A DNA stretch of 32,000 nt from Dickeya dadantii NCPPB 898 (GTDB taxonomy: Bacteria > Pseudomonadota > Gammaproteobacteria > Enterobacterales > Enterobacteriaceae): positions 1,087,263 to 1,119,262 of the forward strand of contig NZ_CM001976.1 in the NCBI RefSeq assembly GCF_000406145.1, in the 5' to 3' direction. Numbering within the stretch: the stretch's first letter is position 1; every line of letters starts with the position of its first letter. Position numbers and translations under genes: made by a program. The notes under the pieces were generated by a model that was not told where the DNA came from, ran no database searches, and worked only from the letters and a program-made list of their open reading frames with translations. Below, in pieces: positions 17,450 to 23,568 of the stretch.

Positions 17450-17656
17450 ACCACTCTTCCCTTCATCATTGGTTCGCTAATTCTATCCTGACGCTTTCGC
17501 CGATGGCGAGCCGCTTGCTACCGGAAGCGCTGAACCGTTGCGTTGATGATGGGTAAATATATTGTTACAAATATGTGGTGGTGAAATATTAAATTCACGG
17601 GAAATGATTAGCATCAGATGAAATGAATTATTTTCAATGCAGGCGATATCCGAACA

Positions 17657-17690
17657 ATGTTCTGTATACGAAAACGATGTTCTGTATACG
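17657..17690. repeat. Direct repeat, 2 x 14 nt (ATGTTCTGTATACG) with 20-nt period
   Basis: Read directly: 17657-17670 equals 17677-17690. It lies in the AT-rich intergenic region about 210 nt upstream of the MFS start. Confidence 0.9.
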
Positions 17691-18265
17691 GAAAAGGAAA
17701 TTACACTCTATGAGCCTGGTGACGAGTAGTCAGTAATCATAGGGTAATTGGCGGGAAATAAAGGCGACAATAAACGTGTTAAATATCTGAATGCGAATGA
17801 TGTGATGAAAAATGGCTGTTTTTCTGGCTGTTATCCATCAGTTATTTTTGTGGCGACAGCGTTTTGGCTGGTTTTTCTTCGTTCATGAATCGTTTTAGTT
17901 GCCGGATAAGCATGTGGATGGAGAGACGGGATGGAAATTATTTTCTTATTATTTTCTGGTTAAGAAAATAGCTTTGCGACCGGTCGCGTGTATCTTTTAT
18001 GGAAAGTAATAGTCATATTGTAATTCTATTGATTTTTTTATTATAAATTTCGCGTGTAAATAGTTGCAGTAGAGCATTTTCCATTATTCAAAAAAGGTGG
18101 GTTTTATATTCAATAAGTTCTATTGACGACCTAAAAATATCGACTTAAGCTCACAGCGAAATTTCCCGCAGATAAGATATTTTTTCATGCTCTCATTTTT
18201 TGAGAAAAAACCGGATTCTTAATCAAATAACTTGATTAGTAACGGGTGTTATACCCTAAACAATG

Positions 18266-18293
18266 CAAATTGCAGGAAACAAATTGCAGGAAA
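18266..18293. repeat. Perfect tandem repeat, 2 x 14 nt (CAAATTGCAGGAAA)
   Basis: Read directly: 18266-18279 equals 18280-18293. It lies about 185 nt upstream of the isocyanide-synthase start and is a candidate regulator binding site. Confidence 0.9.
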
Positions 18294-18477
18294 ATAGGAA
18301 GCGCGTGAATCCCGATGAGCTTACTCAGGTAAGTGATTTGGGTGAGCGACAAATCGGCGTAAGTCGATTTGAATGCAGCCAACACACCTGCAACGTGAAG
18401 TATGGCGGGTATAACGCCGCCGCGGTACCTGTCATCTGATGTATGACGGGTATAAAACATATATTAAGGTTATTCAG

Positions 18478-20519: not shown

Positions 20520-22283
20520 ATGCACGATAATTTGAATGAGACGGCTAACAAGATAGCCGATATCGTAAAATCCTATCTGGTTCAGACACAGGATGATCGC
20601 TTTGAGCCGGAAGGACGTGTATTTTTGGAAAAACAAATCAGCGCCTTCCTGAGCGCTGGTGAGCCCGTCAGGTTTGTGCTGCCAGGTTTCCCCTGCAAAT
20701 CCCCCAATATTGTCGATAAGACGTTCGGCGTTTTGCCGGATTATGGCGACGTGATTTCCATCAATCGTCTGGAATTACTGGCGAAAGCGATTCAGGCGTT
20801 ATATGAACCCGGCTGTCAGGTAACCATTCTGAGCGATGGCACAACCTTTAATGATATTGTCGAGGTTCCGGATACGACCCGTAAAGAATATAACCAGCAG
20901 CTACGCGCGTTGATTCAGTCACCTTATATTGAATGGAAAGCGCTCGGAGATTTCCTCCCGGAAACGCGCTCGGACGATGACACTCGTAAAGCGCTGATTA
21001 AATCAGCCGGATTACCGTACAAAGGAATCGCTGATTTTATCAAGCGCGTCGGGAATCATGAGGAGCTGGCGGCGACGCACGATAAAGTCTGCAGTTATTT
21101 GTATAACGATGTGCGGCTGAACCGGCAGCCTCAGCAGTCTAATGAAGACTACCTGAACAGTGTGGCGGAAAAAGCCTATCAGATGATGTACCGCGGCCAG
21201 GCCTTGAGCGCGCTGGTGGAGCGAGCCTTCCCTGACGCGATTCGCCTGTCGGTTCATCAGTATGACAACGACGGCCCGAAATTTACCTTTGGTTTTGCCG
21301 ACGGCCTCGCCACCGTGCGCCAACCGTGGCACAGCGTGCCGGTGCTGTCGGCGTCGGGAAATGTTTCCCTGCTGGGCCATGCCAGCGTTGATAAAGACCA
21401 CCATGTGCTGGTGACCTATCAGGGACATCCCTGGGTGTATGTGGAAACCGGGGACGCCAGCGCCAGGAAGTTTGATTACGAGTTACTCAAGCAACCGTTG
21501 TTCGGCCTGAAGATTGACGATCCGCAGGGGCTGGGGGTTGAGGCGCTGTCGCCGGCGTTTCTGGCGTTCCTGTCCGCCCAGTTTGGCTTCGTGTGTATCA
21601 AGGGCGTGCAGTTTGAGCGCAGCGAGCAGTTGGAAAGTTTTTGCCAGCCGTTCGGCGAGATTTTCCAGTGGCAGTTCGGCGCGGTGCATGTGGTGAAACC
21701 GGAGGAAAAACCAAGCGGATTCGTACATTCGCTGGAGAAAACGCCGATACACTGGGACCTAAGCATGATCCGGCTGGATCACGAGCAGGTCGGCGGCAAC
21801 CCCTGGTTTACCGCGGAGCGCTTCATGCTGTACTGCAAAACCCCGCCGAAGAAAGGCGAAGGCAGCACCACGGTGGTGGATGGCCGTATCGTGATGGATA
21901 TGGTCGGCCCGGACGTGGTGAAAAAATGGGAAGACGTTCACATCACCTATAACACCCCGATGACCTATTTCGGCGGCAAACCTCGTACTTATCCGCTGGT
22001 GTACGCGCACCCGAAAACCGGTAAAAAGGCGTTCCGCTATCAGGAGGGCAGCGACTCCGAGCTGCAGAAGTTTACCGTTGAGGTGGAAGGCGTTTCCGGG
22101 CAGGAAAGCCAGGCCTTCATCGAGGAACTTGACCGACTGGTGTACGATGAGCGCTGCATGATTGCCCATGACTGGGATCAGGGCGACCTGCTGATCATCG
22201 ATAACTGGCAGACGCTGCACGGCCGGCTGTCGATGACCGAAGCATCGCGCGGTCGTGAGCTGTGGCGGGTGCAGGTGTTTTAA
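20520..22283 (+). CDS. Fusion protein: N-terminal isocyanide synthase (PvcA/IsnA-type) plus C-terminal TauD/TfdA-family Fe(II)/2-oxoglutarate dioxygenase (PvcB/IsnB-type)
   Basis: 587 aa. Residues about 30-305 carry FVLPGFPCKSPNIVDKTFGVLPDYGD...ILSDGTTFND...RLSVHQY...PWHSVPV and are paralogous to ORF 18478..19569. Residues about 325-587 carry the facial triad H411-W-D413 (TPIHWD) and H567 (DNWQTLHGR). GGAG lies 7 nt before the ATG. Confidence 0.85.
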   Translation: MHDNLNETANKIADIVKSYLVQTQDDRFEPEGRVFLEKQISAFLSAGEPVRFVLPGFPCKSPNIVDKTFGVLPDYGDVISINRLELLAKAIQALYEPGCQVTILSDGTTFNDIVEVPDTTRKEYNQQLRALIQSPYIEWKALGDFLPETRSDDDTRKALIKSAGLPYKGIADFIKRVGNHEELAATHDKVCSYLYNDVRLNRQPQQSNEDYLNSVAEKAYQMMYRGQALSALVERAFPDAIRLSVHQYDNDGPKFTFGFADGLATVRQPWHSVPVLSASGNVSLLGHASVDKDHHVLVTYQGHPWVYVETGDASARKFDYELLKQPLFGLKIDDPQGLGVEALSPAFLAFLSAQFGFVCIKGVQFERSEQLESFCQPFGEIFQWQFGAVHVVKPEEKPSGFVHSLEKTPIHWDLSMIRLDHEQVGGNPWFTAERFMLYCKTPPKKGEGSTTVVDGRIVMDMVGPDVVKKWEDVHITYNTPMTYFGGKPRTYPLVYAHPKTGKKAFRYQEGSDSELQKFTVEVEGVSGQESQAFIEELDRLVYDERCMIAHDWDQGDLLIIDNWQTLHGRLSMTEASRGRELWRVQVF

Positions 22284-22308
22284 TCGTCACGGTACGATGC
22301 GCAGTATG

Positions 22309-22330
22309 AACGGGGCGAATCCGCCCCGTT
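22309..22330. terminator. Hairpin between the convergent ICS-dioxygenase and MFS genes
   Basis: A 9-bp GC-rich stem (AACGGGGCG 22309-22317 with CGCCCCGTT 22322-22330) has a 4-nt loop. There is no clear U tract on either strand. Confidence 0.5.
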
Positions 22331-22347
22331 ATCCATACCGGCAAGTC

Positions 22348-23568
22348 CTACGTGTTTTCTCCCGCCTCCAGCGTCTGGCGCTGGGTCAGCGTCGGGAAGT
22401 ATTTCATCCACAGCGCCACCACCAGCAGGGTGCCGGCGCCCCCCAGAACGATGGCCGGCACGACCCCCAGCCAGGCGGCGGTCACGCCGGATTCAAATTC
22501 CCCCAGTTGATTGGAAGTGCCGATGAAGATGGAGTTGGCGGCGCTGACCCGGCCGCGCATGTCATCCGGCGTTTCCAGTTGCACCAGCGTTGAACGGATC
22601 ACCACGCTGACCATGTCGGACGCGCCCAGAAACAGCAACGCGAACAACGACAGAAACAGATTGGTGGACAGGCCAAACGCGATGGTGGCGACACCGAACA
22701 TCGCGACCGCCGAGAACATGATTTTACCGACGTTGCGGGTGAGCGGACGCCGGCCCAGATAAACAGACATCAGTACCGCGCCGAGCGCGGGCGCGCAGCG
22801 CAGCAGCCCCAGTCCCCACGGGCCGGTGTGCAGGATATCTTTGGCGACGATGGGCAACAGCGCGGTGGCGCCGCCGAGCAGCACGGCGAACATATCCAGC
22901 GAGATGGACCCCAGAATCACCGGATTGCGGCGAATGAAGTTCATGCCGCCAAACAGACTTTCCAGGCTCACCGGCGTGCGGGCCAGCGCCTTGTATTCAT
23001 AGCGCAGGTTGAGCAACACCAGAAACGACAGCAGAAAGCAGGCTACGCTGGTGGCGTAAAGCGTGGTGGCGCCGATCAGGTAAATCAGGCCGCCGAGCGC
23101 CGGGCCGACGATGACCGTGGCTTCGCGGGCGGACGCCATCAGCGCCACGGCGCGGGACAGCAGAGCGGGCGCGATCAGGTTCGGCAGCAGCGCCTGCGTG
23201 GCCGGCATTTCAAATGCCCGCGTCGCGCCCAGCAGCGCCGAGCAGGCGTAAATCATGGCGGCGCTGATGGTATGGGTGACGTTGCCGATTACCAGCACCA
23301 GTATGGTGGCGGCCATCAGCAGGCGGCAGCACAGGATAATCACGCGGCGGTTGTACTGATCCACGGTGTGGCCGGCAACCAGCGTCAGCGCCAGCTGTGG
23401 CAGAAACTGCGCCAATCCGACCAGTCCCAGATTCAGGGCGCTGTTGGTCAGGTCATACATCTGCCAGCCAATCCCGACCACCAGCATCTGAAATGCGAAG
23501 GAAGAGGCGATTTGTCCAAGCCAGAAACACAGAAAAGTGGGGTTTTTAAGTGGGGAAGCGGTTTCCAC
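22348..23568 (-). CDS. MFS transporter (enterobactin-exporter-like MFS_3 type)
   Basis: The 406-aa ORF uses a GTG start at 23568. The N-terminus NPTFLCFWLGQIASSFAFQMLVVGIGWQMYDLTNSALNLGLVGLAQFLP is typical of the EntS-like MFS family, and about 12 hydrophobic helices are present. Confidence 0.85.
   Translation of the reverse strand: METASPLKNPTFLCFWLGQIASSFAFQMLVVGIGWQMYDLTNSALNLGLVGLAQFLPQLALTLVAGHTVDQYNRRVIILCCRLLMAATILVLVIGNVTHTISAAMIYACSALLGATRAFEMPATQALLPNLIAPALLSRAVALMASAREATVIVGPALGGLIYLIGATTLYATSVACFLLSFLVLLNLRYEYKALARTPVSLESLFGGMNFIRRNPVILGSISLDMFAVLLGGATALLPIVAKDILHTGPWGLGLLRCAPALGAVLMSVYLGRRPLTRNVGKIMFSAVAMFGVATIAFGLSTNLFLSLFALLFLGASDMVSVVIRSTLVQLETPDDMRGRVSAANSIFIGTSNQLGEFESGVTAAWLGVVPAIVLGGAGTLLVVALWMKYFPTLTQRQTLEAGENT

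Follow-up and report, generated by a model that had tools for sequence, protein, structure and literature searches.

A horizontally acquired isonitrile synthase cassette of Dickeya dadantii, probably directing the synthesis of a simple aromatic vinyl isonitrile

What does a bacterium make with two isonitrile synthases, a phosphatase and a dioxygenase encoded side by side, and are both synthases at work? This question is raised by a locus of Dickeya dadantii NCPPB 898, contained in a window of 32,000 nucleotides (contig NZ_CM001976.1, positions 1,087,263 to 1,119,262), which is the whole stretch of DNA that was analysed and in which all coordinates below are counted. The locus is best read as a horizontally acquired cassette of three genes that probably directs the synthesis of a simple aromatic vinyl isonitrile, most likely derived from tyrosine. 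The free-standing synthase is here called ICS1, the product of the third gene (20520..22283, 587 amino acids, aa) is called the fusion, and the N-terminal synthase domain of this fusion is called ICS*. The parts of the cassette are as follows.

18478..19569, plus strand: ICS1, a free-standing isonitrile synthase of the IsnA/PvcA/SpgA type, 363 aa (PF05141, E-value 2.1e-78)
19573..20253, plus strand: a HAD-IA phosphatase, phosphoglycolate-phosphatase-like, 226 aa (PF13419, E-value 2.3e-30)
20520..21449, plus strand: ICS*, a divergent second isonitrile-synthase domain, N-terminal half of the fusion (PF05141 at aa 40-297, E-value 1.1e-63)
21450..22283, plus strand: the TauD domain, a putative Fe(II)/2-oxoglutarate decarboxylase-desaturase of the PIsnB type, C-terminal half of the fusion (PF02668 at aa 330-584, E-value 2.5e-33)

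In the proposed pathway, ICS1 would act on an aromatic amino acid (L-tyrosine being the likeliest) and condense its alpha-amine with the C2 carbonyl of ribulose-5-phosphate, yielding an alpha-isocyano acid, a step predicted from the homology of ICS1 to SpgA, PvcA and IsnA. The C-terminal domain of the fusion would then decarboxylate and desaturate this acid, giving a vinyl isonitrile of the 4-(2-isocyanovinyl)phenol type, as suggested by residue-level agreement with the crystal structure of PIsnB bound to its substrate. Pfam scans of the window, covering its major open reading frames (ORFs; roughly those of at least 150 aa) plus yjdM, find no glycosyltransferase, PvcC/PvcD or P450, in agreement with the absence of these partners described in a first-pass annotation of the locus, and the window contains no O-methyltransferase or sugar-modifying genes. 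With no tailoring enzymes encoded, the product is most likely a simple vinyl isonitrile. Such a small and diffusible isonitrile, able to bind metals and copper enzymes, probably stands at or near the end of the pathway, and may exit the cell through an adjacent transporter of the MFS.

The evidence that the three genes belong together comes from their distribution. A profile built from 23 fusion homologues was used to scan one genome per species, which recovered 73 loci, and the proteins of the window were located in them by tblastn. The order ICS1, HAD, ICS-TauD fusion, with all genes on the same strand, recurs in 49 of the 73 loci, and 46 of these 49 carry the HAD gene. The hosts include Dickeya undicola, about 35 species of Pseudomonas, Shewanella, Thalassomonas, Pseudoalteromonas, Breoghania, Pseudoruegeria, Arenicella, Phenylobacterium and others, spread over the Gamma-, Alpha- and other Proteobacteria, to which protein searches add Serratia marcescens, Chitinivorax and Candidatus Thiodiazotropha. 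In these searches the fusion of the window matches a D. dadantii protein with 100% identity. When the ORFs of all neighbourhoods are clustered all against all, the fusion is found in 59 loci (kept as a single ORF), ICS1 in 51 and the HAD in at least 37, with every other family in 13 or fewer. Pairwise distances of the fusion correlate with those of ICS1 (r 0.99) and of the HAD (r 0.97; Mantel p <= 0.001), and within the Proteobacteria an ICS1 partner is present for every fusion with enough upstream sequence. These shared families and correlated distances point to a self-contained unit, inherited and transferred together. The cassette genes are also lower in GC (guanine plus cytosine) content than their flanks. 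The ICS1-HAD-fusion cassette is real, intact and horizontally acquired in D. dadantii.

The first-pass annotation had regarded the gene set as unusual and had counted an MFS exporter as part of it. The co-occurrence of the two synthases and the phosphatase holds across the 49 loci, but that of the transporter does not, and the set loses its unusual character, as the sinapigladioside (spg) cluster is a published precedent and the cassette itself is widespread. A search for plasmids returned only the spg replicon of Burkholderia stagnalis, with no sign of a plasmid-borne cassette of the Dickeya type. In Pseudomonas frederiksbergensis 36C6 the cassette is found twice, about 150 kb apart on one 'joined' contig and with identical tblastn statistics (L008 and L009), which could be a true duplication or could stem from the assembly. 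The nematode Diploscapter pachys has an annotated protein of 449 aa with 45% identity to the fusion (P0059), probably through contamination of its assembly by bacterial DNA.

Both synthases are recognised by PF05141, ICS1 with 264 bits and ICS* with 215.8 (cut-off 26.4), and both matches span positions 1 to 272 of the 273 in the profile. The motifs by which they had first been noticed are in place: LPAFPGKSPN (aa 75), LPDYA (92), CSDGYVFSD (124), RLSIH (263) and PWHSV (290) in ICS1, and LPGFPCKSPN (54), LPDYG (72), LSDGTTFND (104), RLSVH (242) and PWHSV (269) in ICS*. The identity between the two paralogues is lower than the approximately 40% first estimated, since BLASTP gives 31% over 288 aa (E-value 1e-35). 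The closest match of ICS1 in the PDB is PvcA (3E59, E-value 8.8e-53), with the IsnA-family structure 9DHM at 1.9e-50, and its identity reaches 46-51% with SpgA-type proteins of Burkholderia and 50-57% with its counterparts in other cassettes. An alignment of 123 free-standing synthases, including PvcA (3E59) and 9DHM, has 68 columns with an invariance of 95% or more; ICS1 holds all 68, being itself one of the sequences that define them. Between D. dadantii and D. undicola, the ratio of nonsynonymous to synonymous substitution rates (dN/dS) is 0.109 for ICS1, 0.118 for the HAD, 0.105 for ICS* and 0.048 for the TauD domain.

The second step of the pathway depends on the TauD domain, whose fusion to the second synthase, described in the first reading of the locus, is borne out by PF05141 and PF02668 matches in one ORF of 587 aa. 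Its best structural match is the substrate-bound PIsnB 7TCL (E-value 4.3e-26), ahead of PvcB 3EAT (3.8e-17). The iron-ligand triad H411-x-D413...H567 is present, the carboxylate anchor R583 and its partner W384 align with R265 and W74 of PIsnB, and the pocket residues W412 and M416 align with W102 and M105, so that PIsnB H101, W102, D103, M105, W74 and R265 are all kept. H567 and R583 do not vary in an alignment of 23 sequences, in which conservation is 90% or more for H411, D413 and W384. The domain differs from PIsnB in having Leu at G104, Ile at Y106 and Gln at N188, and in a 9-residue insertion after HxD. Two positions have been put forward as distinguishing enzymes that decarboxylate from those that keep the carboxylate and form an isocyanoacrylate; here R418 aligns with the first, K107, where Lys or Arg is expected, and Q508 with the second, N188. 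Enzymes that decarboxylate to the vinyl isonitrile have Lys/Arg at the first position and Asn/His at the second, while PvcB-type enzymes have Leu and Cys; single mutants at these positions fail to switch selectivity, which the residues alone do not set (PMC9467999). The Dickeya domain thus has Arg and Gln where PvcB-type enzymes, which retain the carboxylate, have Leu and Cys. The match to 7TCL, the iron triad, the Arg/Trp anchor and the Arg at the K107 position favour a PIsnB-like decarboxylative desaturation by this domain, though Q508 makes the other selectivity position ambiguous.

Among characterised systems, the cassette is closest to the spgA/spgD core of the cluster for sinapigladioside in Burkholderia gladioli, which consists of spgA (an IsnA homologue), spgB (MFS), spgC (tyrosine-phosphatase family) and spgD (an IsnA-IsnB fusion) (PMC8252389). 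Knock-out of either spgA or spgD abolishes the vinyl-N=C=S product labelled from 13C/15N-tyrosine, those of spgB and spgC are without effect, and the IsnA domain of SpgD, which lacks the family motifs, cannot stand in for SpgA (PMC8252389). The spg locus of B. stagnalis is annotated in the same order, followed by a glycosyltransferase, a methyltransferase and sugar genes. Like the Dickeya cassette, spg combines a free IsnA-type synthase with an IsnA-IsnB fusion, a phosphatase-type gene between them and an MFS gene nearby, and the TauD domain is 43-46% identical to that of Burkholderia spg-type loci. However, the spg phosphatase belongs to the protein tyrosine phosphatase (PTP) family (CX4R, HCAANYR) rather than to the HADs, its transporter is of the Bcr/CflA type and lies inside the operon instead of outside the cassette, and its fused synthase domain is degenerate, whereas ICS* has intact motifs. 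The glycosyltransferase, methyltransferase and sugar genes of spg, which lead to an isothiocyanate glycoside, have no counterpart in the Dickeya cassette.

Other isonitrile systems share single elements with this locus. PIsnA and PIsnB of Photorhabdus and Xenorhabdus (rhabduscin/byelyankacin) carry out the same two steps predicted here, formation of the tyrosine isonitrile and then decarboxylative desaturation, but isnA and isnB are separate genes with one synthase and a glycosyltransferase partner. The pvcABCD cluster of Pseudomonas aeruginosa (paerucumarin) has the same two enzyme families, together with PvcC and PvcD, which are not present in the cassette. The fungal XanB-type fusions for xanthocillin show the same ICS-TauD domain order in one polypeptide; they and, presumably, the cyanobacterial fusions, with which ICS* has its clade-specific residues in common, work without a separate synthase or HAD, unlike the Dickeya cassette, and xanthocillin requires for its dimerisation a P450 that the cassette does not encode. 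Two IsnA paralogues and one IsnB in one cluster are also found in the hapalindole-type AmbI1/AmbI2/AmbI3 (WelI1-3) systems, whose synthases are encoded by separate genes and act on tryptophan; no HAD is known to be involved in them. As the tailoring genes that define the pvc, isnAB-glycosyltransferase and spg clusters are absent, the Dickeya locus falls outside each of them as a whole. It is an uncharacterised variant of a known pathway and not a new type of system.

Several points weigh against the explanation preferred here. The substrate (Tyr, Trp or another amino acid) does not appear to be fixed by the homology, both synthases falling far under the cut-off of the NCBIfam model NF045653 for the L-tyrosine isonitrile synthase PvcA (219.6 bits for ICS1 and 97.5 for the fusion, against 600 required for this equivalog). 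Q508 is neither the Asn/His of PIsnB-type enzymes nor the Cys of the PvcB type, though it does have an amide side chain. ICS* departs from the free synthases at 30 of the 68 near-invariant positions, and, by the precedent of SpgD, catalysis may not need a domain of this kind. The role of the phosphatase does not follow from accepted IsnA chemistry, a dependence of the cassette on the adjacent MFS transporter is unsupported, and the literature found holds no product, transcript or enzyme activity for the cassette, literature searches having returned no publication on it. Deletion of spgC, a non-homologous phosphatase gene, left the product unaffected (PMC8252389).

The question of why a second synthase domain is kept turns on what remains conserved in it. 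ICS* retains 38 of the 68 near-invariant columns, among them the Lys-Ser of FPxKSP, the Asp of the PD pair, SDG..F.D, a Tyr, two Arg, an Asp, RLSxH, a Lys and PWH. This core is defined by invariance in the family, and no publication was found for the isonitrile-synthase structures 9DH4/9DHM/9DHN. The remaining 30 columns are replaced by residues that are themselves conserved inside the fusion clade, as in CSDG to LSDG, YED to YND, QRSxAW to YRGxAL and HPQ to HQY. Numbered by alignment column, the clade-specific changes include C115L, Y198H, E207N, S238G, W241L, P259Q/Q260Y, S264G, G268T and W278V. Fusions from cyanobacteria (Calothrix and others) show the same residue pattern; in the 10 recovered loci they stand alone, with no free synthase, HAD or conserved biosynthetic neighbour within 8 kb, and they presumably work by themselves. 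The motifs YLYND, RLSVH and PWH are intact in ICS*, while the SpgD-type domain has lost FLYED and shows RLT and sometimes PWR; relative to its own TauD domain, it is more diverged than ICS*. In four of the cyanobacterial loci (L050, L053, L058 and L064) an ORF of 1142 aa lies divergently beside the ICS-TauD gene (about 4100-7600, minus strand), in which duplicated alkaline-phosphatase-like halves and RTX-like repeats can be discerned by eye.

The dN/dS of 0.105, the clade-conserved replacements and the kept core residues indicate that ICS* is constrained and, by its appearance, shifted in function but not dead. It is a member of an old lineage of ICS-dioxygenase fusions and not a decayed relic; a decaying pseudo-domain is unsupported, with purifying selection and intact motifs. 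The kept core, the purifying selection and the stand-alone lineage tilt the balance slightly towards ICS* being a working, or at least ligand-binding, synthase that would feed the dioxygenase in cis, possibly from a different amino acid.

If both synthases work, they could also lead to a different class of product, in which ICS1 and ICS* each install an isonitrile. This may happen on two amino acids, giving two vinyl isonitriles through one promiscuous dioxygenase, or on two amines of one scaffold, giving a di-isonitrile. The core motifs and purifying selection of ICS*, together with a lineage that presumably functions alone in the cyanobacterial loci examined, speak for two active enzymes. 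ICS1 and ICS* also differ at many positions conserved within their clades, a pattern expected of altered specificity, and PIsnB accepts substrate analogues. On the other side, the related spg system needs both genes and yields a single mono-functionalised tyrosine product, and neither a dimerising P450 or oxidase nor a diamine-forming enzyme is encoded in the cassette. Taken as a whole this explanation is unlikely; its two-substrate version is plausible, and that of a single-molecule di-isonitrile is without positive evidence. The di-isonitrile that the first-pass annotation had put forward is therefore not upheld, as neither an enzyme for dimerisation nor a further substrate with an amine is in evidence, and the spg synthases are non-redundant for a mono-functionalised product.

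The opposite possibility is a paralogue without catalytic function, which is what has been proposed for SpgD; ICS* would then serve to dock ICS1 or to hand over its product to the dioxygenase, so that only one isonitrile is formed; such a domain might pair with ICS1 or bind the labile isocyano acid. The failure of the motif-less IsnA domain of B. gladioli SpgD to replace SpgA fits this role, as does the ICS1 partner of all proteobacterial fusions with enough upstream sequence, and so do the 30 replaced positions, including CSDG to LSDG, QRSxAW to YRGxAL and HPQ to HQY. However, a scaffold has no need of K60, S61, D74, S105-D106-G107, D112, R242, S244, H246, K254, W270 and H271, all of which are invariant in ICS* across Proteobacteria and cyanobacteria. 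The same replacements occur in the partner-less cyanobacterial fusions, which are presumably catalytic, and the Dickeya-type domain is far better preserved than that of SpgD. A non-catalytic ICS* of this kind is considered improbable.

The HAD is the main unexplained element of the cassette. Its match to PF13419 reaches 106.4 bits (cut-off 23.8), and its catalytic motifs FDLDGTLVDT (aa 9), LTNK (109) and GDTSIDV (167) are present, which mark it as an intact phosphatase of the sugar-phosphate type that is travelling with the synthase pair. The first reading had placed it in translational coupling directly behind ICS1, and the spacing is indeed tight: the TAA stop of ICS1 (19567-19569) is separated by a 3-nt gap, without overlap, from the ATG of the HAD at 19573, and a GGAG lies 8 nt upstream of this ATG. 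Thalassomonas and Pseudoalteromonas encode the HAD as the N-terminal part of one protein with the ICS-TauD fusion (822-827 aa; P0018, P0025 and others), and these single polypeptides provide independent evidence that it has a functional link to the synthase pair.

What the phosphatase acts on is less clear. It stays under all NCBIfam equivalog cut-offs, its best match being the phosphoglycolate phosphatase (PGP, Gph) model with 131.5 bits (cut-off 225), so that no substrate can be assigned. The nearest solved structures are generic PGP-like proteins; a weaker match (E-value 7.7e-9) is AlnB, the HAD by which an adduct of ribose-5-phosphate is dephosphorylated on the way to alnumycin. In the accepted mechanism of IsnA, phosphate is eliminated during the reaction, and the need for a phosphatase is not obvious. 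As a low-confidence guess, the HAD could act on a co-substrate derived from a pentulose phosphate, or on an adduct or by-product of the ribulose-5-phosphate-dependent reaction. It is doubtful that ICS* and the HAD together perform chemistry undescribed for IsnA-type enzymes and lead to a product distinct from a rhabduscin-type aglycone; this may involve, for example, a second isonitrile or formamide on a different amine, or a phosphatase-dependent route through a pentulose-phosphate adduct.

Another phosphatase-like domain, which is unrelated to the HAD, measures about 150 aa, has an HCAANYR (CX4R) loop and matches PF22741 weakly; it is found at the N-terminus of the fusion in some loci of Pseudomonas, Pseudoalteromonas, Breoghania, Arenicella and Burkholderia.

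Loci L002, L039-L041, L045 and L057-L061, about 7420-8117: HCAANYR domain, at the N-terminus of the fusion gene

In B. stagnalis this domain is annotated as a separate gene of the PTP family. Its active-site loop is short, which makes it questionable whether it is a phosphatase at all. HAD and HCAANYR domain occur together in four loci, and the idea that they are interchangeable (non-orthologous displacement) was rejected on account of their coexistence in loci of Pseudoalteromonas, Breoghania and Arenicella.

Vinyl isonitriles bind metals and inhibit copper enzymes, and rhabduscin blocks the phenoloxidase of insects. A compact cassette free of tailoring genes could thus be an overlooked factor in virulence, competition or metal handling, in a soft-rot pathogen that also kills aphids (Dickeya) and in dozens of plant-associated Pseudomonas species. 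It also completes a comparison series of three natural states that bears on why two synthases are kept and what the phosphatase adds: a free synthase beside a fused domain that is intact (Dickeya and Pseudomonas), the same pairing but with the fused domain degenerate (Burkholderia spg), and the fusion alone (cyanobacteria). With only about 3.8 kb for the whole cassette, the product and the accessory roles are experimentally tractable.

The remaining features of the locus concern the DNA around and between the cassette genes.

17550..18477, plus strand: AT-rich region upstream of the cassette, presumed regulatory, with blocks conserved in D. undicola
19464..19559, plus strand: tandem repeat at the 3' end of ICS1, 21-bp unit, 4.6 copies (TRF)
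20254..20519, no strand assigned: AT-rich spacer between the HAD and fusion genes, GC 0.35, with a weak hairpin at 20297-20313 and GGAG before the ATG
22348..23568, minus strand: EntS-like MFS_3 transporter, convergent with the fusion gene (PF05977, E-value 2.6e-39)

The transporter, which had been taken to close the locus, is convergent and EntS-like as described, but it reaches only 162 bits on the EntS equivalog model (cut-off 324), hence EntS-like and not EntS, and it lies outside the cassette. Its composition is core-like, with a GC of 0.627 and a GC at third codon positions (GC3) of 0.81, against 0.48-0.58 for the cassette genes. The MFS gene is absent from all cassettes outside Dickeya, and orthologues with 84-93% identity are found in relatives without the cassette. 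In D. parazeae Ech586, a 93% identical orthologue keeps the block SpoIIE-DUF6272-SiaC-GGDEF-YjdM-MFS without ICS genes, while those of Prodigiosinella lie in unrelated contexts, the settings of the orthologues being varied and non-siderophore. On distribution, GC and core synteny without ICS genes, the transporter was rejected as a member of the cassette; it is a resident core gene of Dickeya, which may export the product.

The cassette has landed in a variable spot beside this resident transporter, as the equivalent site of D. parazeae Ech586 (L074, 9205-15221, corresponding to about 17450-22300 of the window) holds a different island, encoding a ThiF/rhodanese protein, a protein of the MbnB/TglH/ChrH family and a carbamoyltransferase. 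The site beside the MFS-yjdM block therefore looks like an insertion hotspot for biosynthetic genes.

The AT-rich DNA described in the first reading as bounding the locus is confirmed, as the window has an overall GC of 0.565 but 17450-18477 only 0.386, 20254-20519 only 0.35 and 23569-23896 only 0.384, and the original hand counts (13/60 and 39/60) are exact. Upstream of the cassette, comparison with D. undicola (L001) gives a mean column identity of 78%, with long invariant AT-rich blocks from about 17550. This block conservation suggests that the approximately 900 bp of AT-rich DNA travel with the cassette and are presumably regulatory. A scan for the sigma-70 consensus upstream of ICS1 found no promoter on the plus strand, and an Rfam scan of 16000-24500 at E <= 1 returned only a chance CRISPR-DR match (21 bits against a cut-off of 39). 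The spacer between HAD and fusion could contain an internal promoter. At 17653-17694 there is a direct duplication of 20-21 bp (AACAATGTTCTGTATACGAA), single-copy in D. undicola, which could be a duplicated regulator site.

The preferred start of ICS1 is 18478, judged by comparison with D. undicola; the upstream ATG at 18439 was rejected because a 19-nt indel breaks the frame in that species. At the other end of the gene, the 21-bp repeat encodes an (S/N)TQI(N/K)xx tail outside the enzyme core. The length of this tail is variable, ICS1 having 335-345 aa in other Dickeya species and 370 aa in one variant of D. dadantii.

Upstream of the AT-rich region, an MFS_1 transporter (16238-17449, minus strand) lies between the cassette and a gene for a LysR-family regulator (15164-16183, plus strand). 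The transporter is missing in D. undicola, where the conserved upstream region follows directly behind the LysR gene. The LysR protein is 96% identical in D. undicola and is a candidate regulator of the cassette; in P. aeruginosa, a LysR-type regulator encoded next to the pvc operon controls it. Further upstream, the stretch 8400-15300 has uneven GC and holds genes for a nitroreductase, an F420-type oxidoreductase, an AraC-type regulator, an ornithine cyclodeaminase and a D-serine-dehydratase-like protein. It follows mutS (ORF 5784..8342), a gene whose downstream DNA is known to be variable in enteric bacteria. Beyond the other end of the cassette, 24361-27327 (minus strand) is occupied by a SiaABCD-like module of four genes, kept in D. 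parazeae, which encode a SpoIIE/CBS phosphatase, a DUF6272 protein, a SiaC-family protein and a GGDEF cyclase.

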